64,000 nt of DNA, taken from Eledone cirrhosa (taxonomy: Eukaryota). This document shows, in pieces, positions 6 to 64,000 of this stretch (position 1 is its first letter; the number at the start of each line of letters is the position of its first letter). Below the pieces are notes generated by a model. The model saw only the letters and a list, made by a program, of their open reading frames with translations, ran no database searches and had not been told where the DNA came from. Made by a program: the position numbers and the translations under genes. The stretch lies in the NCBI GenBank assembly GCA_964016885.1, contig OZ024750.1, positions 30,876,001 to 30,940,000 of the forward strand. Reading direction: 5' to 3'.

Positions 6-95
6 ACTCAGTAGTTCTTTGGACAGTTGGAACAGCTGTCGATGTTACAGGTGCTATTGTTGATGACACAGGTGCTATTGATGATGACACAGGTT
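6..95 (-). CDS. Repeat exon A (unit 1), PTS linker QPVSSSIAPVSSTIAPVTSTAVPTVQRTTE
   Basis: Acceptor ttctag, donor gtgag; 90 nt, phase 1-1; one copy in each of 18 units. Confidence 0.88.
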
Positions 96-3000
96 CTAGA
101 ATTTAGAAAGAATATCTACTTAGTGAATTGTTTTAGACAATTAAAGCAGATCTTTGCACCAGAATAATTGTAAAGAAAATAAAATGAAATATCCTAGATT
201 TCATAGTGAATCTAATCTTTTAAATATTTGAAAATTAGAGCGTTCCACATATCCATAAGTATGTATTTGTAAATTAGAGCGTTCCACATATCCATGAATA
301 AATCTATGTATTTATATGTTGATTTGTCTAGATGTATAAAAGGTACACAGCTCAATGTCAGTATTATGTTTTTCTTTACATAAACATTATTGCTACTAAG
401 AAATGTTTTAAGGGAGATAAGAATAAATGAAGTAAACTAATTGTTTGATTCAATGTGATATTTATTTTGACTGATGGCTGATAAAAGTTCCAGAAAATTT
501 GGAAGGAAATGTAATAAAGTAAAATAAAATCAATATGAATTAGATTTTTTACGAAGAATAAGCTGCTGGTAGAAAGCGATATCATGTAGAAACCACAGAA
601 AATAGTGGAGATTCAAATATTTGTATTAATAGTTGAACATGACATTAAGTTTGAAGAATTATTATTGATACAATATTTATAAACAACATTAATATAATTG
701 TTTCTACTTTAGGCACAAGGCCAGCAATTACCCAGTGCATTACTGGTACTTTATTTTATCGACTCCGTAAGGATGAAAGGCAAAGTCAACCTCATTAATA
801 TAATGCCAGTAATAAACGTATGAATTACAATAGGAAAATTATATATGAATGAGACAAATTTACAAATTTTTAAAGAACTCCCTTCAGATAGATATATCTT
901 TCAATTAAATATATAGTTTCCATTTATGTGTGATGTAGGAATGAAGCACTTGCCTGATTAATTATACATATGAAATATACCAGCTTTTATGTAATTGTTA
1001 GATGTTAACTGGGATTGTTTCAAAATGAGTCCTTATAAAAGAAGTGTAAATTTTAAAAACAAAACTAGAGATCCAAGTTGCAAATTAATGAAGGTTTATT
1101 GGAATTACCAAATATACAGCCATACATATATATTGAAAGATTTATCTACATTGATTCATGAGGAAAGTCATTTAACATAAAACTCACGTTGACTAGTTGT
1201 TGGTACACTTGATACAACTGCTGAAGTGGCTGGTGCCAGTGTTGTTGTAAGAGGATCTGAAGTTTAGGAAAGAAATCACAATAATCAAAATCTATGTGAC
1301 TTTACAAATCAGATGTAAATAAAGATGAGTTGCATCAGGATTAATAGAAATAAATAAATAGATTGGAATTATCACTTACGTTTACAGATTTTGGCAGACA
1401 CAGATACGACCATATCTTCTGTGATATCATCAGCTTCAATTACAATCGTCACAGTTTCTTGACCATTACCACTTGGAATACCAACTGGTCTATCTGGGGT
1501 TGATGTCTGTAGAATGGATTTACATTTTTTATTAATGATAAGATTAAAATAAACAGTGATCGTCAAAAAATATAGACAATGTCGAAATTCCATTAATGAA
1601 TGAAATAGAACACTGTCTGAATTATATGTCCTTATATTCTGTAAATTCTAGAATATCATTATATGAATTGAAATATTAATATAAAGGAAGATACATATGA
1701 AATAAGTAGAAAGAAATATGAAACTTGAATGAAAAAATCACCATCAGATTACCTTGATTGTGTATTCTGTTGAAGGATTTGATAACAAAACAGTATATGA
1801 TTTCACATTTTCATGGTCAACAAGGCTTATTGTTCCACCGGCATTAAGCGTGGGACCAATTTGTAATGTGACAGTTCTTTTAGATTTAGCATTAGTTTTC
1901 CAGCCAACATTTGGTCTCACATCACTAGGTGATCCGACATTAGGACTTAAGGTGATTGCTGTATCAGGGATGAAAGTTTCATCATCCATTGCTTCTGTTA
2001 TCTCACAGAACACTGTTAATTAAAACAATTACATATTATAAAGTGTCAAAATAAAATGATAATAGTACAAATGTTCTATATATGAAGGATAACATATGTA
2101 ATAATTATTGCATTAATACTCACACTCAGTAGTTCTTTGGACAGTTGGAACAGCTGTCGATGTTACAGGTGCTATTGTTGATGACACAGGTGCTATTGAT
2201 GATGACACAGGTTCTAGAATTTAGAAAGAATATCTACTTAGTGAATTGTTTTAGACAATTAAAGCAGATCTTTGCACCAGAATAATTGTAAAGAAAATAA
2301 AATGAAATATCCTAGATTTCATAGTGAATCTAATCTTTTAAATATTTGAAAATTAGAGCGTTCCACATATCCATAAGTATGTATTTGTAAATTAGAGCGT
2401 TCCACATATCCATGAATAAATCTATGTATTTATATGTTGATTTGTCTAGATGTATAAAAGGTACACAGCTCAATGTCAGTATTATGTTTTTCTTTACATA
2501 AACATTATTGCTACTAAGAAATGTTTTAAGGGAGATAAGAATAAATGAAGTAAACTAATTGTTTGATTCAATGTGATATTTATTTTGACTGATGGCTGAT
2601 AAAAGTTCCAGAAAATTTGGAAGGAAATGTAATAAAGTAAAATAAAATCAATATGAATTAGATTTTTTACGAAGAATAAGCTGCTGGTAGAAAGCGATAT
2701 CATGTAGAAACCACAGAAAATAGTGGAGATTCAAATATTTGTATTAATAGTTGAACATGACATTAAGTTTGAAGAATTATTATTGATACAATATTTATAA
2801 ACAACATTAATATAATTGTTTCTACTTTAGGCACAAGGCCAGCAATTACCCAGTGCATTACTGGTACTTTATTTTATCGACTCCGTAAGGATGAAAGGCA
2901 AAGTCAACCTCATTAATATAATGCCAGTAATAAACGTATGAATTACAATAGGAAAATTATATATGAATGAGACAAATTTACAAATTTTTAAAGAACTCCC

Positions 3001-6000
3001 TTCAGATAGATATATCTTTCAATTAAATATATAGTTTCCATTTATGTGTGATGTAGGAATGAAGCACTTGCCTGATTAATTATACATATGAAATATACCA
3101 GCTTTTATGTAATTGTTAGATGTTAACTGGGATTGTTTCAAAATGAGTCCTTATAAAAGAAGTGTAAATTTTAAAAACAAAACTAGAGATCCAAGTTGCA
3201 AATTAATGAAGGTTTATTGGAATTACCAAATATACAGCCATACATATATATTGAAAGATTTATCTACATTGATTCATGAGGAAAGTCATTTAACATAAAA
3301 CTCACGTTGACTAGTTGTTGGTACACTTGATACAACTGCTGAAGTGGCTGGTGCCAGTGTTGTTGTAAGAGGATCTGAAGTTTAGGAAAGAAATCACAAT
3401 AATCAAAATCTATGTGACTTTACAAATCAGATGTAAATAAAGATGAGTTGCATCAGGATTAATAGAAATAAATAAATAGATTGGAATTATCACTTACGTT
3501 TACAGATTTTGGCAGACACAGATACGACCATATCTTCTGTGATATCATCAGCTTCAATTACAATCGTCACAGTTTCTTGACCATTACCACTTGGAATACC
3601 AACTGGTCTATCTGGGGTTGATGTCTGTAGAATGGATTTACATTTTTTATTAATGATAAGATTAAAATAAACAGTGATCGTCAAAAAATATAGACAATGT
3701 CGAAATTCCATTAATGAATGAAATAGAACACTGTCTGAATTATATGTCCTTATATTCTGTAAATTCTAGAATATCATTATATGAATTGAAATATTAATAT
3801 AAAGGAAGATACATATGAAATAAGTAGAAAGAAATATGAAACTTGAATGAAAAAATCACCATCAGATTACCTTGATTGTGTATTCTGTTGAAGGATTTGA
3901 TAACAAAACAGTATATGATTTCACATTTTCATGGTCAACAAGGCTTATTGTTCCACCGGCATTAAGCGTGGGACCAATTTGTAATGTGACAGTTCTTTTA
4001 GATTTAGCATTAGTTTTCCAGCCAACATTTGGTCTCACATCACTAGGTGATCCGACATTAGGACTTAAGGTGATTGCTGTATCAGGGATGAAAGTTTCAT
4101 CATCCATTGCTTCTGTTATCTCACAGAACACTGTTAAATAAAACAATTACATATTATAAAGTGTCAAAATAAAATGATAATAGTACAAATGTTCTATATA
4201 TGAAGGATAACATATGTAATAATTATTGCATTAATACTCACACTCAGTAGTTCTTTGGACAGTTGGAACAGCTGTCGAAGTTACAGGTGCTATTGTTGAT
4301 GACACAGGTGCTATTGTTGATGACACAGGTTCTAGAATTTAGAAAGAATATCTACTTAGTGAATTGTTTTAGACAATTAAAGCAGATCTTTGCACCAGAA
4401 TAATTGTAAAGAAAATAAAATGAAATATCCTAGATTTCATAGTGAATCTAATCTTTTAAATATTTGAAAATTAGAGCGTTCCACATATCCATAAGTATGT
4501 ATTTGTAAATTAGAGCGTTCCACATATCCATGAATAAATCTATGTATTTATATGTTGATTTGTCTAGATGTATAAAAGATACACAGCTCAATGTCAGTAT
4601 TATGTTTTTCTTTACATAAACATTATTGCTACTAAGAAATGTTTTAAGGGAGATAAGAATAAATGAAGTAAACTAATTGTTTGATTCAATGTGATATTTA
4701 TTTTGACTGATGGCTGATAAAAGTTCCAGAAAATTTGGAAGGAAATGTAATAAAGTAAAATAAAATCAATATGAATTAGATTTTTTACGAAGAATAAGCT
4801 GCTGGTAGAAAGCGATATCATGTAGAAACCACAGAAAATAGTGGAGATTCAAATATTTGTATTAATAGTTGAACATGACATTAAGTTTGAAGAATTATTA
4901 TTGATACAATATTTATAAACAACATTAATATAATTGTTTCTACTTTAGGCACAAGGCCAGCAATTACCCAGTGCATTACTGGTACTTTATTTTATCGACT
5001 CCGTAAGGATGAAAGGCAAAGTCAACCTCATTAATATAATGCCAGTAATAAACGTATGAATTACAATAGGAAAATTATATATGAATGAGACAAATTTACA
5101 AATTTTTAAAGAACTCCCTTCAGATAGATATATCTTTCAATTAAATATATAGTTTCCATTTATGTGTGATGTAGGAATGAAGCACTTGCCTGATTAATTA
5201 TACATATGAAATATACCAGCTTTTATGTAATTGTTAGATGTTAACTGGGATTGTTTCAAAATGAGTCCTTATAAAAGAAGTGTAAATTTTAAAAACAAAA
5301 CTAGAGATCCAAGTTGCAAATTAATGAAGGTTTATTGGAATTACCAAATATACAGCCATACATATATATTGAAAGATTTATCTACATTGATTCATGAGGA
5401 AAGTCATTTAACATAAAACTCACGTTGACTAGTTGTTGGTACACTTGATACAACTGCTGAAGTGGCTGGTGCCAGTGTTGTTGTAAGAGGATCTGAAGTT
5501 TAGGAAAGAAATCACAATAATCAAAATCTATGTGACTTTACAAATCAGATGTAAATAAAGATGAGTTGCATCAGGATTAATAGAAATAAATAAATAGATT
5601 GGAATTATCACTTACGTTTACAGATTTTGGCAGACACAGATACGACCATATCTTCTGTGATATCATCAGCTTCAATTACAATCGTCACAGTTTCTTGACC
5701 ATTACCACTTGGAATACCAACTGGTCTATCTGGGGTTGATGTCTGTAGAATGGATTTACATTTTTTATTAATGATAAGATTAAAATAAACAGTGATCGTC
5801 AAAAAATATAGACAATGTCGAAATTCCATTAATGAATGAAATAGAACACTGTCTGAATTATATGTCCTTATATTCTGTAAATTCTAGAATATCATTATAT
5901 GAATTGAAATATTAATATAAAGGAAGATACATATGAAATAAGTAGAAAGAAATATGAAACTTGAATGAAAAAATCACCATCAGATTACCTTGATTGTGTA

Positions 6001-9000
6001 TTCTGTTGAAGGATTTGATAACAAAACAGTATATGATTTCACATTTTCATGGTCAACAAGGCTTATTGTTCCACCGGCATTAAGCGTGGGACCAATTTGT
6101 AATGTGACAGTTCTTTTAGATTTAGCATTAGTTTTCCAGCCAACATTTGGTCTCACATCACTAGGTGATCCGACATTAGGACTTAAGGTGATTGCTGTAT
6201 CAGGGATGAAAGTTTCATCATCCATTGCTTCTGTTATCTCACAGAACACTGTTAATTAAAACAATTACATATTATAAAGTGTCAAAATAAAATGATAATA
6301 GTACAAATGTTCTATATATGAAGGATAACATATGTAATAATTATTGCATTAATACTCACACTCAGTAGTTCTTTGGACAGTTGGAACAGCTGTCGATGTT
6401 ACAGGTGCTATTGTTGATGACACAGGTGCTATTGATGATGACACAGGTTCTAGAATTTAGAAAGAATATCTACTTAGTGAATTGTTTTAGACAATTAAAG
6501 CAGATCTTTGCACCAGAATAATTGTAAAGAAAATAAAATGAAATATCCTAGATTTCATAGTGAATCTAATCTTTTAAATATTTGAAAATTAGAGCGTTCC
6601 ACATATCCATAAGTATGTATTTGTAAATTAGAGCGTTCCACATATCCATGAATAAATCTATGTATTTATATGTTGATTTGTCTAGATGTATAAAAGGTAC
6701 ACAGCTCAATGTCAGTATTATGTTTTTCTTTACATAAACATTATTGCTACTAAGAAATGTTTTAAGGGAGATAAGAATAAATGAAGTAAACTAATTGTTT
6801 GATTCAATGTGATATTTATTTTGACTGATGGCTGATAAAAGTTCCAGAAAATTTGGAAGGAAATGTAATAAAGTAAAATAAAATCAATATGAATTAGATT
6901 TTTTACGAAGAATAAGCTGCTGGTAGAAAGCGATATCATGTAGAAACCACAGAAAATAGTGGAGATTCAAATATTTGTATTAATAGTTGAACATGACATT
7001 AAGTTTGAAGAATTATTATTGATACAATATTTATAAACAACATTAATATAATTGTTTCTACTTTAGGCACAAGGCCAGCAATTACCCAGTGCATTACTGG
7101 TACTTTATTTTATCGACTCCGTAAGGATGAAAGGCAAAGTCAACCTCATTAATATAATGCCAGTAATAAACGTATGAATTACAATAGGAAAATTATATAT
7201 GAATGAGACAAATTTACAAATTTTTAAAGAACTCCCTTCAGATAGATATATCTTTCAATTAAATATATAGTTTCCATTTATGTGTGATGTAGGAATGAAG
7301 CACTTGCCTGATTAATTATACATATGAAATATACCAGCTTTTATGTAATTGTTAGATGTTAACTGGGATTGTTTCAAAATGAGTCCTTATAAAAGAAGTG
7401 TAAATTTTAAAAACAAAACTAGAGATCCAAGTTGCAAATTAATGAAGGTTTATTGGAATTACCAAATATACAGCCATACATATATATTGAAAGATTTATC
7501 TACATTGATTCATGAGGAAAGTCATTTAACATAAAACTCACGTTGACTAGTTGTTGGTACACTTGATACAACTGCTGAAGTGGCTGGTGCCAGTGTTGTT
7601 GTAAGAGGATCTGAAGTTTAGGAAAGAAATCACAATAATCAAAATCTATGTGACTTTACAAATCAGATGTAAATAAAGATGAGTTGCATCAGGATTAATA
7701 GAAATAAATAAATAGATTGGAATTATCACTTACGTTTACAGATTTTGGCAGACACAGATACGACCATATCTTCTGTGATATCATCAGCTTCAATTACAAT
7801 CGTCACAGTTTCTTGACCATTACCACTTGGAATACCAACTGGTCTATCTGGGGTTGATGTCTGTAGAATGGATTTACATTTTTTATTAATGATAAGATTA
7901 AAATAAACAGTGATCGTCAAAAAATATAGACAATGTCGAAATTCCATTAATGAATGAAATAGAACACTGTCTGAATTATATGTCCTTATATTCTGTAAAT
8001 TCTAGAATATCATTATATGAATTGAAATATTAATATAAAGGAAGATACATATGAAATAAGTAGAAAGAAATATGAAACTTGAATGAAAAAATCACCATCA
8101 GATTACCTTGATTGTGTATTCTGTTGAAGGATTTGATAACAAAACAGTATATGATTTCACATTTTCATGGTCAACAAGGCTTATTGTTCCACCGGCATTA
8201 AGCGTGGGACCAATTTGTAATGTGACAGTTCTTTTAGATTTAGCATTAGTTTTCCAGCCAACATTTGGTCTCACATCACTAGGTGATCCGACATTAGGAC
8301 TTAAGGTGATTGCTGTATCAGGGATGAAAGTTTCATCATCCATTGCTTCTGTTATCTCACAGAACACTGTTAAATAAAACAATTACATATTATAAAGTGT
8401 CAAAATAAAATGATAATAGTACAAATGTTCTATATATGAAGGATAACATATGTAATAATTATTGCATTAATACTCACACTCAGTAGTTCTTTGGACAGTT
8501 GGAACAGCTGTCGATGTTACAGGTGCTATTGTTGATGACACAGGTGCTATTGAGGATGACACAGGTTCTAGAATTTAGAAAGAATATCTACTTAGTGAAT
8601 TGTTTTAGACAATTAAAGCAGATCTTTGCACCAGAATAATTGTAAAGAAAATAAAATGAAATATCCTAGATTTCATAGTGAATCTAATCTTTTAAATATT
8701 TGAAAATTAGAGCGTTCCACATATCCATAAGTATGTATTTGTAAATTAGAGCGTTCCACATATCCATGAATAAATCTATGTATTTATATGTTGATTTGTC
8801 TAGATGTATAAAAGGTACACAGCTCAATGTCAGTATTATGTTTTTCTTTACATAAACATTATTGCTACTAAGAAATGTTTTAAGGGAGATAAGAATAAAT
8901 GAAGTAAACTAATTGTTTGATTCAATGTGATATTTATTTTGACTGATGCCTGATAAAAGTTCCAGAAAATTTGGAAGGAAATGTAATAAAGTAAAATAAA

Positions 9001-12000
9001 ATCAATATGAATTAGATTTTTTACGAAGAATAAGCTGCTGGTAGAAAGCGATATCATGTAGAAACCACAGAAAATAGTGGAGATTCAAATATTTGTATTA
9101 ATAGTTGAACATGACATTAAGTTTGAAGAATTATTATTGATACAATATTTATAAACAACATTAATATAATTGTTTCTACTTTAGGCACAAGGCCAGCAAT
9201 TACCCAGTGCATTACTGGTACTTTATTTTATCGACTCCGTAAGGATGAAAGGCAAAGTCAACCTCATTAATATAATGCCAGTAATAAACGTATGAATTAC
9301 AATAGGAAAATTATATATGAATGAGACAAATTTACAAATTTTTAAAGAACTCCCTTCAGATAGATATATCTTTCAATTAAATATATAGTTTCCATTTATG
9401 TGTGATGTAGGAATGAAGCACTTGCCTGATTAATTATACATATGAAATATACCAGCTTTTATGTAATTGTTAGATGTTAACTGGGATTGTTTCAAAATGA
9501 GTCCTTATAAAAGAAGTGTAAATTTTAAAAACAAAACTAGAGATCCAAGTTGCAAATTAATGAAGGTTTATTGGAATTACCAAATATACAGCCATACATA
9601 TATATTGAAAGATTTATCTACATTGATTCATGAGGAAAGTCATTTAACATAAAACTCACGTTGACTAGTTGTTGGTACACTTGATACAACTGCTGAAGTG
9701 GCTGGTGCCAGTGTTGTTGTAAGAGGATCTGAAGTTTAGGAAAGAAATCACAATAATCAAAATCTATGTGACTTTACAAATCAGATGTAAATAAAGATGA
9801 GTTGCATCAGGATTAATAGAAATAAATAAATAGATTGGAATTATCACTTACGTTTACAGATTTTGGCAGACACAGATACGACCATATCTTCTGTGATATC
9901 ATCAGCTTCAATTACAATCGTCACAGTTTCTTGACCATTACCACTTGGAATACCAACTGGTCTATCTGGGGTTGATGTCTGTAGAATGGATTTACATTTT
10001 TTATTAATGATAAGATTAAAATAAACAGTGATCGTCAAAAAATATAGACAATGTCGAAATTCCATTAATGAATGAAATAGAACACTGTCTGAATTATATG
10101 TCCTTATATTCTGTAAATTCTAGAATATCATTATATGAATTGAAATATTAATATAAAGGAAGATACATATGAAATAAGTAGAAAGAAATATGAAACTTGA
10201 ATGAAAAAATCACCATCAGATTACCTTGATTGTGTATTCTGTTGAAGGATTTGATAACAAAACAGTATATGATTTCACATTTTCATGGTCAACAAGGCTT
10301 ATTGTTCCACCGGCATTAAGCGTGGGACCAATTTGTAATGTGACAGTTCTTTTAGATTTAGCATTAGTTTTCCAGCCAACATTTGGTCTCACATCACTAG
10401 GTGATCCGACATTAGGACTTAAGGTGATTGCTGTATCAGGGATGAAAGTTTCATCATCCATTGCTTCTGTTATCTCACAGAACACTGTTAAATAAAACAA
10501 TTACATATTATAAAGTGTCAAAATAAAATGATAATAGTACAAATGTTCTATATATGAAGGATAACATATGTAATAATTATTGCATTAATACTCACACTCA
10601 GTAGTTCTTTGGACAGTTGGAACAGCTGTCGAAGTTACAGGTGCTATTGTTGATGACACAGGTGCTATTGAGGATGACACAGGTTCTAGAATTTAGAAAG
10701 AATATCTACTTAGTGAATTGTTTTAGACAATTAAAGCAGATCTTTGCACCAGAATAATTGTAAAGAAAATAAAATGAAATATCCTAGATTTCATAGTGAA
10801 TCTAATCTTTTAAATATTTGAAAATTAGAGCGTTCCACATATCCATAAGTATGTATTTGTAAATTAGAGCGTTCCACATATCCATGAATAAATCTATGTA
10901 TTTATATGTTGATTTGTCTAGATGTATAAAAGGTACACAGCTCAATGTCAGTATTATGTTTTTCTTTACATAAACATTATTGCTACTAAGAAATGTTTTA
11001 AGGGAGATAAGAATAAATGAAGTAAACTAATTGTTTGATTCAATGTGATATTTATTTTGACTGATGCCTGATAAAAGTTCCAGAAAATTTGGAAGGAAAT
11101 GTAATAAAGTAAAATAAAATCAATATGAATTAGATTTTTTACGAAGAATAAGCTGCTGGTAGAAAGCGATATCATGTAGAAACCACAGAAAATAGTGGAG
11201 ATTCAAATATTTGTATTAATAGTTGAACATGACATTAAGTTTGAAGAATTATTATTGATACAATATTTATAAACAACATTAATATAATTGTTTCTACTTT
11301 AGGCACAAGGCCAGCAATTACCCAGTGTATTACTGGTTCTTTATGTTATCGACTCCGTAAGGATGAAAGGCAAAGTCAACCACATTAATATAATGCCAGT
11401 AATAAACATATGAATTACAATAGGAAAATTATATATGAATGAGACAAATTTACAAACTTTTAAAGAACTCCCTTCAGATAGATATGTCTTTCAATTAAAT
11501 ATATAGTTTCCATTTATGTGTGATGTAGGAATGAAGCACCTGCCTGATTAATTATATATATGAAATATACCAGCTTTTATGTAATTGTTAGATGTTAACT
11601 GGGATTGTTTCAAAATGAGTCCTTATAAAAGAAGTGTAAATTTTAAAAACAAAACTAGAGATCCAAGTTGCAAATTAATGAAGGTTTATTGGAATTACCA
11701 AATATACAGCCATACATATATATTGAAAGATTTATCTACATTGATTCATGAGGAAAGTCATTTAACATAAAACTCACGTTGACTAGTTGTTGGTACACTT
11801 GATACAACTGCTGAAGTGGCTGGTGCCAGTGTTGTTGTAAGAGGATCTGAAGTTTAGGAAAGAAATCACAATAATCAAAATCTATGTGACTTTACAAATC
11901 AGATGTAAATAAAGATGAGTTGCATCAGGATTAATAGAAATAAATAAATAGATTGGAATTATCACTTACGTTTACAGATTTTGGCAGACACAGATACGAC

Positions 12001-15000
12001 CATATCTTCTGTGATATCATCAGCTTCAATTACAATCGTCACAGTTTCTTGACCATTACCACTTGGAATACCAACTGGTCTATCTGGGGTTGATGTCTGT
12101 AGAATGGATTTACATTTTTTATTAATGATAAGATTAAAATAAACAGTGATCGTCAAAAAATATAGACAATGTCGAAATTCCATTAATGAATGAAATAGAA
12201 CACTGTCTGAATTATATGTCCTTATATTCTGTAAATTCTAGAATATCATTATATGAATTGAAATATTAATATAAAGGAAGATACATATGAAATAAGTAGA
12301 AAGAAATATGAAACTTGAATGAAAAAATCACCATCAGATTACCTTGATTGTGTATTCTGTTGAAGGATTTGATAACAAAACAGTATATGATTTCACATTT
12401 TCATGGTCAACAAGGCTTATTGTTCCACCGGCATTAAGCGTGGGACCAATTTGTAATGTGACAGTTCTTTTAGATTTAGCATTAGTTTTCCAGCCAACAT
12501 TTGGTCTCACATCACTAGGTGATCCGACATTAGGACTTAAGGTGATTGCTGTATCAGGGATGAAAGTTTCATCATCCATTGCTTCTGTTATCTCACAGAA
12601 CACTGTTAATTAAAACAATTACATATTATAAAGTGTCAAAATAAAATGATAATAGTACAAATGTTCTATATATGAAGGATAACATATGTAATAATTATTG
12701 CATTAATACTCACACTCAGTAGTTCTTTGGACAGTTGGAACAGCTGTCGATGTTACAGGTGCTATTGTTGATGACACAGGTGCTATTGATGATGACACAG
12801 GTTCTAGAATTTAGAAAGAATATCTACTTAGTGAATTGTTTTAGACAATTAAAGCAGATCTTTGCACCAGAATAATTGTAAAGAAAATAAAATGAAATAT
12901 CCTAGATTTCATAGTGAATCTAATCTTTTAAATATTTGAAAATTAGAGCGTTCCACATATCCATAAGTATGTATTTGTAAATTAGAGCGTTCCACATATC
13001 CATGAATAAATCTATGTATTTATATGTTGATTTGTCTAGATGTATAAAAGGTACACAGCTCAATGTCAGTATTATGTTTTTCTTTACATAAACATTATTG
13101 CTACTAAGAAATGTTTTAAGGGAGATAAGAATAAATGAAGTAAACTAATTGTTTGATTCAATGTGATATTTATTTTGACTGATGGCTGATAAAAGTTCCA
13201 GAAAATTTGGAAGGAAATGTAATAAAGTAAAATAAAATCAATATGAATTAGATTTTTTACGAAGAATAAGCTGCTGGTAGAAAGCGATATCATGTAGAAA
13301 CCACAGAAAATAGTGGAGATTCAAATATTTGTATTAATAGTTGAACATGACATTAAGTTTGAAGAATTATTATTGATACAATATTTATAAACAACATTAA
13401 TATAATTGTTTCTACTTTAGGCACAAGGCCAGCAATTACCCAGTGCATTACTGGTACTTTATTTTATCGACTCCGTAAGGATGAAAGGCAAAGTCAACCT
13501 CATTAATATAATGCCAGTAATAAACGTATGAATTACAATAGGAAAATTATATATGAATGAGACAAATTTACAAATTTTTAAAGAACTCCCTTCAGATAGA
13601 TATATCTTTCAATTAAATATATAGTTTCCATTTATGTGTGATGTAGGAATGAAGCACTTGCCTGATTAATTATACATATGAAATATACCAGCTTTTATGT
13701 AATTGTTAGATGTTAACTGGGATTGTTTCAAAATGAGTCCTTATAAAAGAAGTGTAAATTTTAAAAACAAAACTAGAGATCCAAGTTGCAAATTAATGAA
13801 GGTTTATTGGAATTACCAAATATACAGCCATACATATATATTGAAAGATTTATCTACATTGATTCATGAGGAAAGTCATTTAACATAAAACTCACGTTGA
13901 CTAGTTGTTGGTACACTTGATACAACTGCTGAAGTGGCTGGTGCCAGTGTTGTTGTAAGAGGATCTGAAGTTTAGGAAAGAAATCACAATAATCAAAATC
14001 TATGTGACTTTACAAATCAGATGTAAATAAAGATGAGTTGCATCAGGATTAATAGAAATAAATAAATAGATTGGAATTATCACTTACGTTTACAGATTTT
14101 GGCAGACACAGATACGACCATATCTTCTGTGATATCATCAGCTTCAATTACAATCGTCACAGTTTCTTGACCATTACCACTTGGAATACCAACTGGTCTA
14201 TCTGGGGTTGATGTCTGTAGAATGGATTTACATTTTTTATTAATGATAAGATTAAAATAAACAGTGATCGTCAAAAAATATAGACAATGTCGAAATTCCA
14301 TTAATGAATGAAATAGAACACTGTCTGAATTATATGTCCTTATATTCTGTAAATTCTAGAATATCATTATATGAATTGAAATATTAATATAAAGGAAGAT
14401 ACATATGAAATAAGTAGAAAGAAATATGAAACTTGAATGAAAAAATCACCATCAGATTACCTTGATTGTGTATTCTGTTGAAGGATTTGATAACAAAACA
14501 GTATATGATTTCACATTTTCATGGTCAACAAGGCTTATTGTTCCACCGGCATTAAGCGTGGGACCAATTTGTAATGTGACAGTTCTTTTAGATTTAGCAT
14601 TAGTTTTCCAGCCAACATTTGGTCTCACATCACTAGGTGATCCGACATTAGGACTTAAGGTGATTGCTGTATCAGGGATGAAAGTTTCATCATCCATTGC
14701 TTCTGTTATCTCACAGAACACTGTTAATTAAAACAATTACATATTATAAAGTGTCAAAATAAAATGATAATAGTACAAATGTTCTATATATGAAGGATAA
14801 CATATGTAATAATTATTGCATTAATACTCACACTCAGTAGTTCTTTGGACAGTTGGAACAGCTGTCGAAGTTACAGGTGCTATTGTTGATGACACAGGTG
14901 CTATTGATGATGACACAGGTTCTAGAATTTAGAAAGAATATCTACTTAGTGAATTGTTTTAGACAATTAAAGCAGATCTTTGCACCAGAATAATTGTAAA

Positions 15001-18000
15001 GAAAATAAAATGAAATATCCTAGATTTCATAGTGAATCTAATCTTTTAAATATTTGAAAATTAGAGCGTTCCACATATCCATAAGTATGTATTTGTAAAT
15101 TAGAGCGTTCCACATATCCATGAATAAATCTATGTATTTATATGTTGATTTGTCTAGATGTATAAAAGGTACACAGCTCAATGTCAGTATTATGTTTTTC
15201 TTTACATAAACATTATTGCTACTAAGAAATGTTTTAAGGGAGATAAGAATAAATGAAGTAAACTAATTGTTTGATTCAATGTGATATTTATTTTGACTGA
15301 TGGCTGATAAAAGTTCCAGAAAATTTGGAAGGAAATGTAATAAAGTAAAATAAAATCAATATGAATTAGATTTTTTACGAAGAATAAGCTGCTGGTAGAA
15401 AGCGATATCATGTAGAAACCACAGAAAATAGTGGAGATTCAAATATTTGTATTAATAGTTGAACATGACATTAAGTTTGAAGAATTATTATTGATACAAT
15501 ATTTATAAACAACATTAATATAATTGTTTCTACTTTAGGCACAAGGCCAGCAATTACCCAGTGCATTACTGGTACTTTATTTTATCGACTCCGTAAGGAT
15601 GAAAGGCAAAGTCAACCTCATTAATATAATGCCAGTAATAAACGTATGAATTACAATAGGAAAATTATATATGAATGAGACAAATTTACAAATTTTTAAA
15701 GAACTCCCTTCAGATAGATATATCTTTCAATTAAATATATAGTTTCCATTTATGTGTGATGTAGGAATGAAGCACTTGCCTGATTAATTATACATATGAA
15801 ATATACCAGCTTTTATGTAATTGTTAGATGTTAACTGGGATTGTTTCAAAATGAGTCCTTATAAAAGAAGTGTAAATTTTAAAAACAAAACTAGAGATCC
15901 AAGTTGCAAATTAATGAAGGTTTATTGGAATTACCAAATATACAGCCATACATATATATTGAAAGATTTATCTACATTGATTCATGAGGAAAGTCATTTA
16001 ACATAAAACTCACGTTGACTAGTTGTTGGTACACTTGATACAACTGCTGAAGTGGCTGGTGCCAGTGTTGTTGTAAGAGGATCTGAAGTTTAGGAAAGAA
16101 ATCACAATAATCAAAATCTATGTGACTTTACAAATCAGATGTAAATAAAGATGAGTTGCATCAGGATTAATAGAAATAAATAAATAGATTGGAATTATCA
16201 CTTACGTTTACAGATTTTGGCAGACACAGATACGACCATATCTTCTGTGATATCATCAGCTTCAATTACAATCGTCACAGTTTCTTGACCATTACCACTT
16301 GGAATACCAACTGGTCTATCTGGGGTTGATGTCTGTAGAATGGATTTACATTTTTTATTAATGATAAGATTAAAATAAACAGTGATCGTCAAAAAATATA
16401 GACAATGTCGAAATTCCATTAATGAATGAAATAGAACACTGTCTGAATTATATGTCCTTATATTCTGTAAATTCTAGAATATCATTATATGAATTGAAAT
16501 ATTAATATAAAGGAAGATACATATGAAATAAGTAGAAAGAAATATGAAACTTGAATGAAAAAATCACCATCAGATTACCTTGATTGTGTATTCTGTTGAA
16601 GGATTTGATAACAAAACAGTATATGATTTCACATTTTCATGGTCAACAAGGCTTATTGTTCCACCGGCATTAAGCGTGGGACCAATTTGTAATGTGACAG
16701 TTCTTTTAGATTTAGCATTAGTTTTCCAGCCAACATTTGGTCTCACATCACTAGGTGATCCGACATTAGGACTTAAGGTGATTGCTGTATCAGGGATGAA
16801 AGTTTCATCATCCATTGCTTCTGTTATCTCACAGAACACTGTTAATTAAAACAATTACATATTATAAAGTGTCAAAATAAAATGATAATAGTACAAATGT
16901 TCTATATATGAAGGATAACATATGTAATAATTATTGCATTAATACTCACACTCAGTAGTTCTTTGGACAGTTGGAACAGCTGTCGATGTTACAGGTGCTA
17001 TTGTTGATGACACAGGTGCTATTGATGATGACACAGGTTCTAGAATTTAGAAAGAATATCTACTTAGTGAATTGTTTTAGACAATTAAAGCAGATCTTTG
17101 CACCAGAATAATTGTAAAGAAAATAAAATGAAATATCCTAGATTTCATAGTGAATCTAATCTTTTAAATATTTGAAAATTAGAGCGTTCCACATATCCAT
17201 AAGTATGTATTTGTAAATTAGAGCGTTCCACATATCCATGAATAAATCTATGTATTTATATGTTGATTTGTCTAGATGTATAAAAGGTACACAGCTCAAT
17301 GTCAGTATTATGTTTTTCTTTCCATAAACATTATTGCTACTAAGAAATGTTTTAAGGGAGATAAGAATAAATGAAGTAAACTAATTGTTTGATTCAATGT
17401 GATATTTATTTTGACTGATGGCTGATAAAAGTTCCAGAAAATTTGGAAGGAAATGTAATAAAGTAAAATAAAATCAATATGAATTAGATTTTTTACGAAG
17501 AATAAGCTGCTGGTAGAAAGCGATATCATGTAGAAACCACAGAAAATAGTGGAGATTCAAATATTTGTATTAATAGTTGAACATGACATTAAGTTTGAAG
17601 AATTATTATTGATACAATATTTATAAACAACATTAATATAATTGTTTCTACTTTAGGCACAAGGCCAGCAATTACCCAGTGTATTACTGGTTCTTTATGT
17701 TATCGACTCCGTAAGGATGAAAGGCAAAGTCAACCACATTAATATAATGCCAGTAATAAACATATGAATTACAATAGGAAAATTATATATGAATGAGACA
17801 AATTTACAAACTTTTAAAGAACTCCCTTCAGATAGATATGTCTTTCAATTAAATATATAGTTTCCATTTATGTGTGATGTAGGAATGAAGCACCTGCCTG
17901 ATTAATTATATATATGAAATATACCAGCTTTTATGTAATTGTTAGATGTTAACTGGGATTGTTTCAAAATGAGTCCTTATAAAAGAAGTGTAAATTTTAA

Positions 18001-21000
18001 AAACAAAACTAGAGATCCAAGTTGCAAATTAATGAAGGTTTATTGGAATTACCAAATATACAGCCATACATATATATTGAAAGATTTATCTACATTGATT
18101 CATGAGGAAAGTCATTTAACATAAAACTCACGTTGACTAGTTGTTGGTACACTTGATACAACTGCTGAAGTGGCTGGTGCCAGTGTTGTTGTAAGAGGAT
18201 CTGAAGTTTAGGAAAGAAATCACAATAATCAAAATCTATGTGACTTTACAAATCAGATGTAAATAAAGATGAGTTGCATCAGGATTAATAGAAATAAATA
18301 AATAGATTGGAATTATCACTTACGTTTACAGATTTTGGCAGACACAGATACGACCATATCTTCTGTGATATCATCAGCTTCAATTACAATCGTCACAGTT
18401 TCTTGACCATTACCACTTGGAATACCAACTGGTCTATCTGGGGTTGATGTCTGTAGAATGGATTTACATTTTTTATTAATGATAAGATTAAAATAAACAG
18501 TGATCGTCAAAAAATATAGACAATGTCGAAATTCCATTAATGAATGAAATAGAACACTGTCTGAATTATATGTCCTTATATTCTGTAAATTCTAGAATAT
18601 CATTATATGAATTGAAATATTAATATAAAGGAAGATACATATGAAATAAGTAGAAAGAAATATGAAACTTGAATGAAAAAATCACCATCAGATTACCTTG
18701 ATTGTGTATTCTGTTGAAGGATTTGATAACAAAACAGTATATGATTTCACATTTTCATGGTCAACAAGGCTTATTGTTCCACCGGCATTAAGCGTGGGAC
18801 CAATTTGTAATGTGACAGTTCTTTTAGATTTAGCATTAGTTTTCCAGCCAACATTTGGTCTCACATCACTAGGTGATCCGACATTAGGACTTAAGGTGAT
18901 TGCTGTATCAGGGATGAAAGTTTCATCATCCATTGCTTCTGTTATCTCACAGAACACTGTTAATTAAAACAATTACATATTATAAAGTGTCAAAATAAAA
19001 TGATAATAGTACAAATGTTCTATATATGAAGGATAACATATGTAATAATTATTGCATTAATACTCACACTCAGTAGTTCTTTGGACAGTTGGAACAGCTG
19101 TCGATGTTACAGGTGCTATTGTTGATGACACAGGTGCTATTGATGATGACACAGGTTCTAGAATTTAGAAAGAATATCTACTTAGTGAATTGTTTTAGAC
19201 AATTAAAGCAGATCTCTGCACCAGAATAATTGTAAAGAAAATAAAATGAAATATCCTAGATTTCATAGTGAATCTAATCTTTTAAATATTTGAAAATTAG
19301 AGCGTTCCACATATCCATAAGTATGTATTTGTAAATTAGAGCGTTCCACATATCCATGAATAAATCTATGTATTTATATGTTGATTTGTCTAGATGTATA
19401 AAAGGTACACAGCTCAATGTCAGTATTATGTTTTTCTTTCCATAAACATTATTGCTACTAAGAAATGTTTTAAGGGAGATAAGAATAAATGAAGTAAACT
19501 AATTGTTTGATTCAATGTGATATTTATTTTGACTGATGGCTGATAAAAGTTCCAGAAAATTTGGAAGGAAATGTAATAAAGTAAAATAAAATCAATATGA
19601 ATTAGATTTTTTACGAAGAATAAGCTGCTGGTAGAAAGCGATATCATGTAGAAACCACAGAAAATAGTGGAGATTCAAATATTTGTATTAATAGTTGAAC
19701 ATGACATTAAGTTTGAAGAATTATTATTGATACAATATTTATAAACAACATTAATATAATTGTTTCTACTTTAGGCACAAGGCCAGCAATTACCCAGTGC
19801 ATTACTGGAACTTTATTTTCTCGACTCCGTAAGGATGAAAGGCAAAGTCAACCTCATTAATATAATGCCAGTAATAAACGTATGAATTACAATAGGAAAA
19901 TTATATATGAATGAGACAAATTTACAAATTTTTAAAGAACTCCCTTCAGATAGATATATCTTTCAATTAAATATATAGTTTCCATTTATGTGTGATGTAG
20001 GAATGAAGCACTTGCCTGATTAATTATACATATGAAATATACCAGCTTTTATGTAATTGTTAGATGTTAACTGGGATTGTTTCAAAATGAGTCCTTATAA
20101 AAGAAGTGTAAATTTTAAAAACAAAACTAGAGATCCAAGTTGCAAATTAATGAAGGTTTATTGGAATTACCAAATATACAGCCATACATATATATTGAAA
20201 GATTTATCTACATTGATTCATGAGGAAAGTCATTTAACATAAAACTCACGTTGACTAGTTGTTGGTACACTTGATACAACTGCTGAAGTGGCTGGTGCCA
20301 GTGTTGTTGTAAGAGGATCTGAAGTTTAGGAAAGAAATCACAATAATCAAAATCTATGTGACTTTACAAATCAGATGTAAATAAAGATGAGTTGCATCAG
20401 GATTAATAGAAATAAATAAATAGATTGGAATTATCACTTACGTTTACAGATTTTGGCAGACACAGATACGACCATATCTTCTGTGATATCATCAGCTTCA
20501 ATTACAATCGTCACAGTTTCTTGACCATTACCACTTGGAATACCAACTGGTCTATCTGGGGTTGATGTCTGTAGAATGGATTTACATTTTTTATTAATGA
20601 TAAGATTAAAATAAACAGTGATCGTCAAAAAATATAGACAATGTCGAAATTCCATTAATGAATGAAATAGAACACTGTCTGAATTATATGTCCTTATATT
20701 CTGTAAATTCTAGAATATCATTATATGAATTGAAATATTAATATAAAGGAAGATACATATGAAATAAGTAGAAAGAAATATGAAACTTGAATGAAAAAAT
20801 CACCATCAGATTACCTTGATTGTGTATTCTGTTGAAGGATTTGATAACAAAACAGTATATGATTTCACATTTTCATGGTCAACAAGGCTTATTGTTCCAC
20901 CGGCATTAAGCGTGGGACCAATTTGTAATGTGACAGTTCTTTTAGATTTAGCATTAGTTTTCCAGCCAACATTTGGTCTCACATCACTAGGTGATCCGAC

Positions 21001-24000
21001 ATTAGGACTTAAGGTGATTGCTGTATCAGGGATGAAAGTTTCATCATCCATTGCTTCTGTTATCTCACAGAACACTGTTAATTAAAACAATTACATATTA
21101 TAAAGTGTCAAAATAAAATGATAATAGTACAAATGTTCTATATATGAAGGATAACATATGTAATAATTATTGCATTAATACTCACACTCAGTAGTTCTTT
21201 GGACAGTTGGAACAGCTGTCGATGTTACAGGTGCTATTGTTGATGACACAGGTGCTATTGATGATGACACAGGTTCTAGAATTTAGAAAGAATATCTACT
21301 TAGTGAATTGTTTTAGACAATTAAAGCAGATCTTTGCACCAGAATAATTGTAAAGAAAATAAAATGAAATATCCTAGATTTCATAGTGAATCTAATCTTT
21401 TAAATATTTGAAAATTAGAGCGTTCCACATATCCATAAGTATGTATTTGTAAATTAGAGCGTTCCACATATCCATGAATAAATCTATGTATTTATATGTT
21501 GATTTGTCTAGATGTATAAAAGGTACACAGCTCAATGTCAGTATTATGTTTTTCTTTCCATAAACATTATTGCTACTAAGAAATGTTTTAAGGGAGATAA
21601 GAATAAATGAAGTAAACTAATTGTTTGATTCAATGTGATATTTATTTTGACTGATGGCTGATAAAAGTTCCAGAAAATTTGGAAGGAAATGTAATAAAGT
21701 AAAATAAAATCAATATGAATTAGATTTTTTACGAAGAATAAGCTGCTGGTAGAAAGCGATATCATGTAGAAACCACAGAAAATAGTGGAGATTCAAATAT
21801 TTGTATTAATAGTTGAACATGACATTAAGTTTGAAGAATTATTATTGATACAATATTTATAAACAACATTAATATAATTGTTTCTACTTTAGGCACAAGG
21901 CCAGCAATTACCCAGTGTATTACTGGTTCTTTATGTTATCGACTCCGTAAGGATGAAAGGCAAAGTCAACCACATTAATATAATGCCAGTAATAAACATA
22001 TGAATTACAATAGGAAAATTATATATGAATGAGACAAATTTACAAACTTTTAAAGAACTCCCTTCAGATAGATATGTCTTTCAATTAAATATATAGTTTC
22101 CATTTATGTGTGATGTAGGAATGAAGCACCTGCCTGATTAATTATATATATGAAATATACCAGCTTTTATGTAATTGTTAGATGTTAACTGGGATTGTTT
22201 CAAAATGAGTCCTTATAAAAGAAGTGTAAATTTTAAAAACAAAACTAGAGATCCAAGTTGCAAATTAATGAAGGTTTATTGGAATTACCAAATATACAGC
22301 CATACATATATATTGAAAGATTTATCTACATTGATTCATGAGGAAAGTCATTTAACATAAAACTCACGTTGACTAGTTGTTGGTACACTTGATACAACTG
22401 CTGAAGTGGCTGGTGCCAGTGTTGTTGTAAGAGGATCTGAAGTTTAGGAAAGAAATCACAATAATCAAAATCTATGTGACTTTACAAATCAGATGTAAAT
22501 AAAGATGAGTTGCATCAGGATTAATAGAAATAAATAAATAGATTGGAATTATCACTTACGTTTACAGATTTTGGCAGACACAGATACGACCATATCTTCT
22601 GTGATATCATCAGCTTCAATTACAATCGTCACAGTTTCTTGACCATTACCACTTGGAATACCAACTGGTCTATCTGGGGTTGATGTCTGTAGAATGGATT
22701 TACATTTTTTATTAATGATAAGATTAAAATAAACAGTGATCGTCAAAAAATATAGACAATGTCGAAATTCCATTAATGAATGAAATAGAACACTGTCTGA
22801 ATTATATGTCCTTATATTCTGTAAATTCTAGAATATCATTATATGAATTGAAATATTAATATAAAGGAAGATACATATGAAATAAGTAGAAAGAAATATG
22901 AAACTTGAATGAAAAAATCACCATCAGATTACCTTGATTGTGTATTCTGTTGAAGGATTTGATAACAAAACAGTATATGATTTCACATTTTCATGGTCAA
23001 CAAGGCTTATTGTTCCACCGGCATTAAGCGTGGGACCAATTTGTAATGTGACAGTTCTTTTAGATTTAGCATTAGTTTTCCAGCCAACATTTGGTCTCAC
23101 ATCACTAGGTGATCCGACATTAGGACTTAAGGTGATTGCTGTATCAGGGATGAAAGTTTCATCATCCATTGCTTCTGTTATCTCACAGAACACTGTTAAT
23201 TAAAACAATTACATATTATAAAGTGTCAAAATAAAATGATAATAGTACAAATGTTCTATATATGAAGGATAACATATGTAATAATTATTGCATTAATACT
23301 CACACTCAGTAGTTCTTTGGACAGTTGGAACAGCTGTCGATGTTACAGGTGCTATTGTTGATGACACAGGTGCTATTGATGATGACACAGGTTCTAGAAT
23401 TTAGAAAGAATATCTACTTAGTGAATTGTTTTAGACAATTAAAGCAGATCTCTGCACCAGAATAATTGTAAAGAAAATAAAATGAAATATCCTAGATTTC
23501 ATAGTGAATCTAATCTTTTAAATATTTGAAAATTAGAGCGTTCCACATATCCATAAGTATGTATTTGTAAATTAGAGCGTTCCACATATCCATGAATAAA
23601 TCTATGTATTTATATGTTGATTTGTCTAGATGTATAAAAGGTACACAGCTCAATGTCAGTATTATGTTTTTCTTTACATAAACATTATTGCTACTAAGAA
23701 ATGTTTTAAGGGAGATAAGAATAAATGAAGTAAACTAATTGTTTGATTCAATGTGATATTTATTTTGACTGATGGCTGATAAAAGTTCCAGAAAATTTGG
23801 AAGGAAATGTAATAAAGTAAAATAAAATCAATATGAATTAGATTTTTTACGAAGAATAAGCTGCTGGTAGAAAGCGATATCATGTAGAAACCACAGAAAA
23901 TAGTGGAGATTCAAATATTTGTATTAATAGTTGAACATGACATTAAGTTTGAAGAATTATTATTGATACAATATTTATAAACAACATTAATATAATTGTT

Positions 24001-27000
24001 TCTACTTTAGGCACAAGGCCAGCAATTACCCAGTGCATTACTGGAACTTTATTTTATCGACTCCGTAAGGATGAAAGGCAAAGTCAACCTCATTAATATA
24101 ATGCCAGTAATAAACGTATGAATTACAATAGGAAAATTATATATGAATGAGACAAATTTACAAATTTTTAAAGAACTCCTTTCAGATAGATATATCTTTC
24201 AATTAAATATATAGTTTCCATTTATGTGTGATGTAGGAATGAAGCACTTGCCTGATTAATTATACATATGAAATATACCAGCTTTTATGTAATTGTTAGA
24301 TGTTAACTGGGATTGTTTCAAAATGAGTCCTTATAAAAGAACTGTAAATTTTAAAAAACAAAACTAGAGATCCAAGTTGCAAATTAATGAAGGTTTATTG
24401 GAATTACCAAATATACAGCCATACATATATATTGAAAGATTTATCTACATTGATTCATGAGGAAAGTCATTTAACATAAAACTCACGTTGACTAGTTGTT
24501 GGTACACTTGATACAACTGCTGAAGTGGCTGGTGCCAGTGTTGTTGTAAGAGGATCTGAAGTTTAGGAAAGAAATCACAATAATCAAAATCTATGTGACT
24601 TTACAAATCAGTTGTAAATAAAGATGAGTTGCATCAGGATTAATAGAAATAAATAAATAGATTGGAATTATCACTTACGTTTACAGATTTTGGCAGACAC
24701 AGATACGACCATATCTTCTGTGATATCATCAGCTTCAATTACAATCGTCACAGTTTCTTGACCATTACCACTTGGAATACCAACTGGTCTATCTGGGGTT
24801 GATGTCTGTAGAATGGATTTATATTTTTTATTAATGATAAGATTAAATTAAACAGTGATCGTCAAAAAATATAGACAATGTCGAAATTCCATTAATGAAT
24901 GAAATAGAACACTGTCTGAATTATATGTCCTTATATTCTGTAAATTCTAGAATATCATTATATGAATTGAAATATTAATATAAAGGAAGATACATATGAA
25001 ATAAGTAGAAAGAAATATGAAACTTGAATGAAAAAATCACCATCAGATTACCTTGATTGTGTATTCTGTTGAAGGATTTGATAACAAAACAGTATATGAT
25101 TTCACATTTTCATGGTCAACAAGGCTTATTGTTCCACCGGCATTAAGCGTGGGACCAATTTGTAATGTGACAGTTCTTTTAGATTTAGCATTAGTTTTCC
25201 AGCCAACATTTGGTCTCACATCACTAGGTGATCCGACATTAGGACTTAAGGTGATTGCTGTATCAGGGATGAAAGTTTCATCATCCATTGCTTCTGTTAT
25301 CTCACAGAACACTGTTAATTAAAACAATTACATATTATAAAGTGTCAAAATAAAATGATAATAGTACAAATGTTCTATATATGAAGGATAACATATGTAA
25401 TAATTATTGCATTAATACTCACACTCAGTAGTTCTTTGGACAGTTGGAACAGCTGTCGATGTTACAGGTGCTATTGTTGATGACACAGGTGCTATTGATG
25501 ATGACACAGGTTCTAGAATTTAGAAAGAATATCTACTTAGTGAATTGTTTTAGACAATTAAAGCAGATCTTTGCACCAGAATAATTGTAAAGAAAATAAA
25601 ATGAAATATCCTAGATTTCATAGTGAATCTAATCTTTTAAATATTTGAAAATTAGAGCGTTCCACATATCCATAAGTATGTATTTGTAAATTAGAGCGTT
25701 CCACATATCCATGAATAAATCTATGTATTTATATGTTGATTTGTCTAGATGTATAAAAGGTACACAGCTCAATGTCAGTATTATGTTTTTCTTTCCATAA
25801 ACATTATTGCTACTAAGAAATGTTTTAAGGGAGATAAGAATAAATGAAGTAAACTAATTGTTTGATTCAATGTGATATTTATTTTGACTGATGGCTGATA
25901 AAAGTTCCAGAAAATTTGGAAGGAAATGTAATAAAGTAAAATAAAATCAATATGAATTAGATTTTTTACGAAGAATAAGCTGCTGGTAGAAAGCGATATC
26001 ATGTAGAAACCACAGAAAATAGTGGAGATTCAAATATTTGTATTAATAGTTGAACATGACATTAAGTTTGAAGAATTATTATTGATACAATATTTATAAA
26101 CAACATTAATATAATTGTTTCTACTTTAGGCACAAGGCCAGCAATTACCCAGTGTATTACTGGTTCTTTATGTTATCGACTCCGTAAGGATGAAAGGCAA
26201 AGTCAACCACATTAATATAATGCCAGTAATAAACATATGAATTACAATAGGAAAATTATATATGAATGAGACAAATTTACAAACTTTTAAAGAACTCCCT
26301 TCAGATAGATATGTCTTTCAATTAAATATATAGTTTCCATTTATGTGTGATGTAGGAATGAAGCACCTGCCTGATTAATTATATATATGAAATATACCAG
26401 CTTTTATGTAATTGTTAGATGTTAACTGGGATTGTTTCAAAATGAGTCCTTATAAAAGAAGTGTAAATTTTAAAAACAAAACTAGAGATCCAAGTTGCAA
26501 ATTAATGAAGGTTTATTGGAATTACCAAATATACAGCCATACATATATATTGAAAGATTTATCTACATTGATTCATGAGGAAAGTCATTTAACATAAAAC
26601 TCACGTTGACTAGTTGTTGGTACACTTGATACAACTGCTGAAGTGGCTGGTGCCAGTGTTGTTGTAAGAGGATCTGAAGTTTAGGAAAGAAATCACAATA
26701 ATCAAAATCTATGTGACTTTACAAATCAGATGTAAATAAAGATGAGTTGCATCAGGATTAATAGAAATAAATAAATAGATTGGAATTATCACTTACGTTT
26801 ACAGATTTTGGCAGACACAGATACGACCATATCTTCTGTGATATCATCAGCTTCAATTACAATCGTCACAGTTTCTTGACCATTACCACTTGGAATACCA
26901 ACTGGTCTATCTGGGGTTGATGTCTGTAGAATGGATTTACATTTTTTATTAATGATAAGATTAAAATAAACAGTGATCGTCAAAAAATATAGACAATGTC

Positions 27001-63431: not shown

Positions 63432-63844
63432 CTGAAAATATATTTGTGATTATTAAGTCTTTAATAAACAATGAAAATGATTTGTGTAAAAGTGATTCTA
63501 AAGCTCTCTATACTTTTAAGAATTCATCAGTGTACAAAATAAGTTATAGTGAAATAATGAAGGTAACAATGATGTGTGTATAATAGAATGAATACAAAGT
63601 TTTAGTTAAACAATGATTCATGGCTGTGAGATCTTGTAGATCATGATGGTCAGATGCTATGAATTAAAGTTATAGCTTTGTACAGAACAAGGACACCTGA
63701 CTTTGCCAAAGAAATATAGTACCAAGTTTTAGACCAATTTGTTGAATGAGAAACTTAGTAATTTTGCATTCAAATATATTGTTTATATTATTAACTACAA
63801 AATACAACAGGATTGTTCTTTTTCTCTTTTTTTTTACCTCTTCA

Positions 63845-63975: not shown

Positions 63976-64000
63976 TACCTCTTAAATAATTGTTTCTACT

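Follow-up and report, generated by a model that had tools for sequence, protein, structure and literature searches.

A predicted loop-trimmed F5/8 type C module in a tandem exon array of a mucin-type gene of Eledone cirrhosa

The minus strand of the 64-kb stretch of Eledone cirrhosa contig OZ024750.1 analyzed here (the window) carries 17 copies of a four-exon unit of approximately 2.1 kb each, all in one open frame. This tandem array, with a period of 1995–2119 bp, fills the first 36 kb of the window (Table 1) and runs off its edge, since exon A of an 18th copy is found at 95–6. All four unit exons (A, D, C and B) have AG/GT ends, and the intron phases around exons D and C are 1-0-1. Exon D encodes the N-terminal two thirds of a predicted discoidin-fold domain, including its first Cys, while exon C contributes the last strands and the second Cys. 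Exons B and A together form a linker of 53–60 residues with 53–55% Pro, Thr and Ser (17 linkers), which is short for a mucin domain; exon A measures 90 nt in 15 of the 17 complete copies and 111 nt in the other two. A preliminary description of this DNA had proposed at least 17 near-identical copies of a module with exactly two Cys, one at each end, and this was borne out: spliced exons D and C encode 129 residues with exactly two Cys in 17/17 copies, and the module protein is identical in 15 of them, with the first two copies differing by 2 and 1 residues.

Joined together, the 69 array exons that were found yield 3131 codons without a stop. Across 16 aligned units, five of six indels (1, 1, 2, 39 and 106 nt) were intronic, and the sole exonic one was an in-frame change of 21 nt in exon A. 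Variable columns amounted to 4/387 in exons D and C vs. 44/1572 in introns, a weak difference (Fisher p = 0.043), and three of the four variable D+C columns alter the residue. An array that is coding by chance is disfavoured, as indels are intronic or in frame and exons D and C vary less than introns. No further diverged copy of the module was detected in the window, where 17 of 1517 frames matched at E < 1e-36 and the other notable ones were exon C frames.

Upstream of the array, the order of Pfam domains is C8, TIL, TIL, VWD, VWD, C8, TIL and LDLa (8 of the 12 frames scanned). The same exons occur in collinear order in an O. bimaculoides protein named 'SCO-spondin-like' (P0033, 1731 aa), at 67–83% identity. 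The outermost group, with approximate ends and 67–82% to residues 702–983 of P0033, comprises the last part of the second D assembly plus the next TIL. Of three VWD-C8-TIL assemblies, the third and the end of the second thus lie in the window and P0033, which has three VWD-type motifs, covers the remainder; the gene starts beyond base 64000, and both gene ends are outside the window. The eight exons that run from the third TIL exon through to the first module make up one stop-free frame of 351 aa, and Pro/Thr/Ser-rich repeats do follow the D assemblies. From the P0033 numbering plus 17 units of approximately 182 aa, the full protein would exceed approximately 4,400 aa.

Several introns of this region are themselves repetitive: a 48-bp tandem array at 37955–38842 (18.5 copies, 99% matches) yields long spurious open frames, a 460-bp A-rich simple repeat occupies 51232–51694, and a repeat with a 30-bp period lies at 54585–54848. 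Broken intronic frames at 37348–37785, 43456–44087, 47020–48517 and 61685–62156 resemble what we take to be fragments of LINE reverse transcriptases.

As judged by eye and without a MUC2 alignment, the C8 exon of the third assembly shows a Cys-x5-Cys-x-Cys spacing with an Asp before the middle Cys, the counterpart of which in MUC2 is C1082/D1087/C1088/C1090 according to the accessible text of PMC6739602. The third C8 (46046–45937) hence appears, again by eye, to keep its cysteines spaced as they are around the C1088 interchain site of MUC2, and no extra Cys was seen by eye in the third TIL (44340–44194) for the MUC2 C1130 interchain site.

Table 1. Features of the array and of the upstream exons in the 64-kb window.
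Feature	Position	Strand	Remarks
Whole array	6..36287	-	17 units; extends beyond window edge
Exon D starts, units 1–9	35588, 33577, 31543, 29548, 27429, 25311, 23192, 21074, 18956	-	
Exon D starts, units 10–17	16838, 14720, 12602, 10484, 8366, 6248, 4130, 2012	-	
Exon B	1188..1256	-	First half of Pro/Thr/Ser linker; 69 nt, phase 1-1, 18 copies
Exon C, 17th module	1380..1506	-	AG/GT, 127 nt, 17 copies
Exon D, 17th module	1753..2012	-	AG/GT, 260 nt, 17 copies
Exon A	2124..2213	-	Second half of Pro/Thr/Ser linker; contains 21-nt internal repeat
First Ser/Thr-rich exon ahead of array	39167..39286	-	120 nt, AG/GT, in frame; 50% to P0033
Exon with one LDL-receptor class A repeat	40390..40535	-	Pfam PF00057, E = 1.6e-10
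Cys-rich exon following third TIL	42786..42882	-	72% to P0033
TIL exon, third D assembly	44194..44340	-	PF01826, E = 5.5e-8
Two C8 exons, third D assembly	45937..49366 (~49366-49226, ~46046-45937)	-	PF08742, E = 3.8e-11; 83% to P0033; ends approximate
Two VWD exons, third D assembly	51781..55214	-	PF00094, E = 1.5e-20 and 1.3e-8; 72% and 80% to P0033
C8, TIL, TIL and small Cys-rich exons	56475..63443	-	PF08742, E = 1.7e-15; PF01826, E = 1.6e-11 and 2.5e-5

The fold of the module was modelled with AlphaFold2 on residues 66–195 of P0002 (XP_052834281.1, LOC128251500), an O. bimaculoides homologue with 58% identity that stands in for the window module, employing an alignment of 26 rows of which one was misplaced. 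The model (pLDDT 92.2, pTM 0.87) is a nearly all-beta sandwich. In a comparison with 48,161 solved chains, discoidin domains took all ten of the best rows, namely those of neuropilin, DDR1, DDR2, factor V C2 and discoidin I (Z 11.5–12.5, rmsd 2.6–3.1 Å, 120–126 of 130 residues aligned). This is in line with the minimal discoidin/galactose-binding-like fold put forward in the preliminary description, for which a predicted structure and a structural search had been suggested as a check. HERC2 DOC (Z 11.5) and IFT25 (Z 11.4) tied with the discoidin rows, and CBM32 scored 9.4–10.6. Foldseek returned 61 matches at E ≤ 0.001 in the order IFT25, a CBM32, APC10 and neuropilin, while realignment of the matches ranked neuropilin and factor VIII highest. 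The structural-alignment identity was 12–17% to animal discoidin domains vs. 10–12% to IFT25/DOC, and the ESM Atlas's own model gave a TM of 0.67–0.73 to F5/8 clusters.

A longer relative with two long modules, P0043, was also modelled (pLDDT 77.5). Its single-domain Z was 13.6–13.8 for discoidin I, CASPR2, neuropilin b1 and factor V C2, but at most 11.3 for BIRC6, IFT25 (11.2), HERC2 DOC (10.0) and CBM32 (10.1). As these groups are more than 2 Z apart, the tie of the octopus model is broken in favour of discoidin. Further, the two module Cys fall at the aligned ends of the matched discoidin domains; in the rigid alignment we take the second to coincide with the Cys of the canonical disulfide and the first to be one residue off.

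At the sequence level, none of the 26 aligned members matched Pfam PF00754 or PF22633 at E ≤ 10, as anticipated for a domain below the Pfam threshold, and neither did window exons D and C or P0033. Exon D alone matched no Pfam family at E ≤ 10, no PDB sequence, nothing above 0.80 in the Atlas and, in a separate comparison, none of 91 candidates; the P0002 sequence had no match in the PDB, profiles A1 and A2 gave only chance matches there (best E 0.23 and 0.12), and nothing relevant was found in NCBIfam for 32 members. The module is therefore F5/8-like by fold and outside Pfam membership, although InterPro, SUPERFAMILY, Gene3D, HHpred or AlphaFold DB may already label it galactose-binding-like. 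The discoidin motifs that had been said to follow in order were confirmed in part: the quoted module motifs occur as stated, but the Trp of WLQIDL is Arg in 22/25 relatives.

Alternatively, the module could be a galactose-binding-like sandwich from a different lineage (IFT25/DOC/SUN type), without F5/8 type C descent, which would account for the tied Z of the octopus model, for the Foldseek ranks of IFT25 (first) and APC10 (third) and for the lack of a Pfam F5/8 match among the 26 aligned members. Nonetheless, this origin is most improbable, given that the longer relative separates the groups, that identity is 12–17% to animal discoidin domains vs. the lower values for IFT25/DOC, and that the terminal Cys pair and the mucin position suit F5/8. 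Both in identity and in architecture, the module is very probably a loop-trimmed F5/8 type C bead in a gel-forming mucin of hemolectin/SCO-spondin type.

A phmmer search for relatives of the module, with exon D as query against 1.84 billion proteins, gave 28 at E ≤ 0.001. We judged 23 of these to be homologues, mostly single-exon read-outs, with two O. bimaculoides records among them; P0021, P0023, P0025, P0026 and P0028, which carry unrelated Pfam domains and match by chance through repeats, were excluded, and P0020 was omitted from profile A1, being near-identical to the end of P0030. The D+C join also occurs in P0002 and P0033, which align without gaps to the window module at 57–59% identity and thus support the splice independently. 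A profile search added seven mucin-like proteins with TIL/VWC domains and two-Cys modules of 139–159 aa, the N-terminal 71 columns of which matched the octopus module in hhalign (probability 96%, E 2.4e-9); alignment A2, which misplaced the C-terminal half of these long modules, was left out of the folding. No relative from either search matched the F5/8 profile of Pfam.

Other observations were made on these relatives. P0014, P0020, P0030 and P0038–P0044 are mucin-like and terminate in three to four discoidin-fold modules of 139–159 aa without a Pfam label, several of them with His-rich linkers. In P0030, P0040 and P0041, which are JGI/IMG proteins of mucin-like type, eight two-Cys modules of 110–122 aa alternate with Thr/Ser/Pro stretches; these possibly represent an even shorter form, a likeness by eye only, as hhalign found no match to the octopus module (probability 2%). 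A second O. bimaculoides locus, P0017 (XP_052821907.1), encodes a 137-aa version with 40% identity followed by Thr/Ser repeats, so that the module is present in more than one gene or gene piece. Finally, the longest contig given for each of P0003, P0011 and P0013, diverged relatives of exon D, is 212,708 bp, a hint that another animal has a gene with numerous diverged modules.

Ten alignment positions are conserved at 90% or above, several of them polar or Pro/Gly, and both Cys are invariant where covered (14/14 and 5/5). Conserved polar residues include Arg33 (25/25), Asn69 (24/25), Arg46 (22/25) and a near-invariant Asp17, while the only conserved aromatics, Trp38 and Tyr/Phe73, are both within strands. 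Between the two octopuses, the module (57–59% identity) has diverged further than the Cys-rich exons (67–83%).

In agreement with the shorter loops noted earlier, the module spans 126 residues from Cys to Cys vs. 153–161 in the matched domains. The P0002 model has 5-residue loops on both sides of a short helix and a one-residue hairpin turn between strands 60–68 and 70–78, which we take to be the three spikes of a discoidin domain. Such spikes are the ligand-binding part of discoidin domains, according to the accessible text of PMC6497308. From secondary structure and alignment, the ligand-binding loops of the modelled homologue look cut back, and spikes with aromatic or basic tips were not found, the model loops being short and no loop aromatic being conserved. 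Moreover, the window module is acidic (pI 4.5, 17 Asp+Glu, 10 Lys+Arg) and contains 1 Trp, 2 Tyr and 2 Phe. Trimmed loops, acidity and the lack of a conserved loop aromatic make lipid binding unlikely, contrary to one of the functions first proposed; the same evidence weakens a lectin role, which conserved Arg33, Asn69 and Arg46 keep possible.

Our best guess for the function, which we hold only tentatively and by analogy, is that the module provides a repeated weak protein-protein contact at fixed spacing, as CysD domains would. We infer a secreted protein whose chain would be polymerised by the D assemblies and whose beads, each closed by its own end-to-end disulfide, would sit between O-glycosylated Pro/Thr/Ser linkers. 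With that disulfide formed, no free Cys is left for covalent links. Having its usual ligand loops trimmed, the bead would act as a compact protein-protein contact, binding other beads or D assemblies in a weak, repeated and non-covalent manner at fixed spacing. Its role would equal that of CysD in vertebrate MUC2/MUC5; CysD forms non-covalent dimers, has internal disulfides only and is thought to set mucus pore size, as the accessible part of PMC3195396 reports.

A weak lectin, in which at least 17 beads of the same fold together bind microbial glycans or those of the mucin with high avidity, is less probable. CBM32 and discoidin I share the fold (Z 9.4–11.5), the conserved polar residues would be in keeping with a binding site, and invariant Arg33 together with Asn69 and Asp17 could, from conservation, mark a sugar site. 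Sugar sites usually require an exposed aromatic, however, and the two conserved here are in strands while the loops are short. Galactose is bound by many discoidin proteins (PMC6497308), and sea urchin Nectin has tandem discoidin domains (PMC10057474), as stated in the accessible parts of both sources.

It is rather unlikely that the fold serves without any ligand, as a stable spacer, resistant to proteases, that interrupts the glycosylated chain and makes it longer. Trimmed loops and wholesale duplication, including introns, into copies 0–28 SNPs apart favour such a role, and the faster divergence of the module than of neighbouring Cys-rich domains fits a plain spacer equally well; the conservation of ten positions, several polar or Pro/Gly, and the persistence of relatives in other mucin-like proteins speak against it. 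A membrane or lipid anchor resembling the C2 domains of factor V and VIII, which are among the best structural matches (Z 11.5–12.0), is very unlikely for an acidic module with few aromatics and a one-residue hairpin tip.

The proposed weak-contact bead can be set against known systems. F5/8 domains following three VWD units have already been described in lophotrochozoan mucins, where they share the region after the D assemblies with CysD domains (PMC4948705, accessible text). The E. cirrhosa gene differs from these in having at least 17 near-identical, sub-threshold copies in strict alternation with multi-exon linkers, while its C-terminal end is outside the window. Like the domains of PF00754 (FA58C; neuropilin b1/b2, DDR1/2, factor V/VIII C2), the module is a predicted all-beta sandwich with an end-to-end match, a Cys at each end and an extracellular context, but it is approximately 30 residues shorter, with trimmed loops, 12–18% identity and neither conserved loop aromatics nor a Pfam match. 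It shares with CysD (MUC2/MUC5AC/MUC5B, Mucin2_WxxW) the position of a small folded domain between Pro/Thr/Ser regions and, putatively, an internal disulfide. In contrast with CysD, it has 2 Cys instead of 10, a single Trp and so no WxxW, and it belongs to a different family without a Pfam match; the likeness, an analogy of role only, fits the architecture. Nectin, secreted and marine, likewise has discoidin domains in tandem (six FA58C in the accessible text of PMC10057474), but these are canonical and without VWD or mucin linkers.

The closest counterparts are P0033 and P0002, with collinear exons (67–83%) and an ungapped 126-residue Cys-to-Cys module. These models hold 2 and 1.3 copies, respectively, and then stop; the module is unannotated and the copies have diverged (81/126 identical), whereas those of E. 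cirrhosa are homogenised. As for the name, thrombospondin and LDLa repeats are the defining features of chordate SCO-spondin (PMC8261243, accessible text). No TSP1 and a single LDLa were detected in the 12 window frames scanned, nor was TSP1 detected in P0033, the 3' gene end being outside the window; 'SCO-spondin-like' thus reflects the shared VWD/LDLa only. According to the accessible parts of PMC11431876 and PMC7333891, respectively, the skin mucus of O. vulgaris and the pedal mucus of a limpet contain proteins named SCO-spondin, which may be no more than namesakes of the O. bimaculoides counterpart of the E. cirrhosa gene.

Units of the array are 0–28 SNPs apart, and non-adjacent ones are identical or nearly so (5=7=9, 4~6, 11=14=16), which suggests a higher-order repeat arising from unequal crossing-over. 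Every boundary around the unit is of phase 1, which allows entire units to be gained or lost without a frameshift, and we infer that crossing-over of this symmetric four-exon unit would set the bead number. Homogenisation is recent in the E. cirrhosa lineage, given the low identity between the P0033 copies. Exact copy number depends on the assembly and could be off, as units 11, 14 and 16 and units 5, 7 and 9 have no SNPs between them; that the array as a whole is an assembly artefact or a non-coding satellite is, despite these identical units, scarcely credible, since SNPs and indels distinguish most units, frame and splice sites are preserved, and diverged tandem copies are present in the O. 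bimaculoides models.

The domain class and its position in mucins are known; what differs is the trimmed form, which Pfam does not see, and the large array of homogeneous copies. In a literature search that mostly left out subscription papers, no description of the module and no paper on discoidin domains in cephalopod mucins were found, and the domain figures in the supplement of the lophotrochozoan mucin study (PMC4948705) may already show such arrays. It is conceivable, albeit doubtful, that an unannotated, spike-less discoidin family replaces CysD in providing the non-covalent cross-links of invertebrate mucins, with bead number, set by a four-exon, intron-containing repeat under concerted evolution, tuning gel mesh or adhesion. 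Through its 139–159-aa and perhaps 110–122-aa relatives, the family may not be confined to cephalopods and may occupy stretches that current annotation leaves blank.

A repeated mucin module missed by Pfam and NCBIfam now has a fold, and an 'uncharacterized' octopus protein turns out to be a piece of a giant mucin, with an array cut short in existing models. If the beads are inert, the gain is one of annotation, along with a case of an exon array evolving in concert. If they self-associate, they would solve the CysD problem in a second way and, being small, easy to express and equipped with only two Cys, would offer a handle on the organisation of cephalopod mucus, to the gel cohesion of which the trimmed module may contribute.
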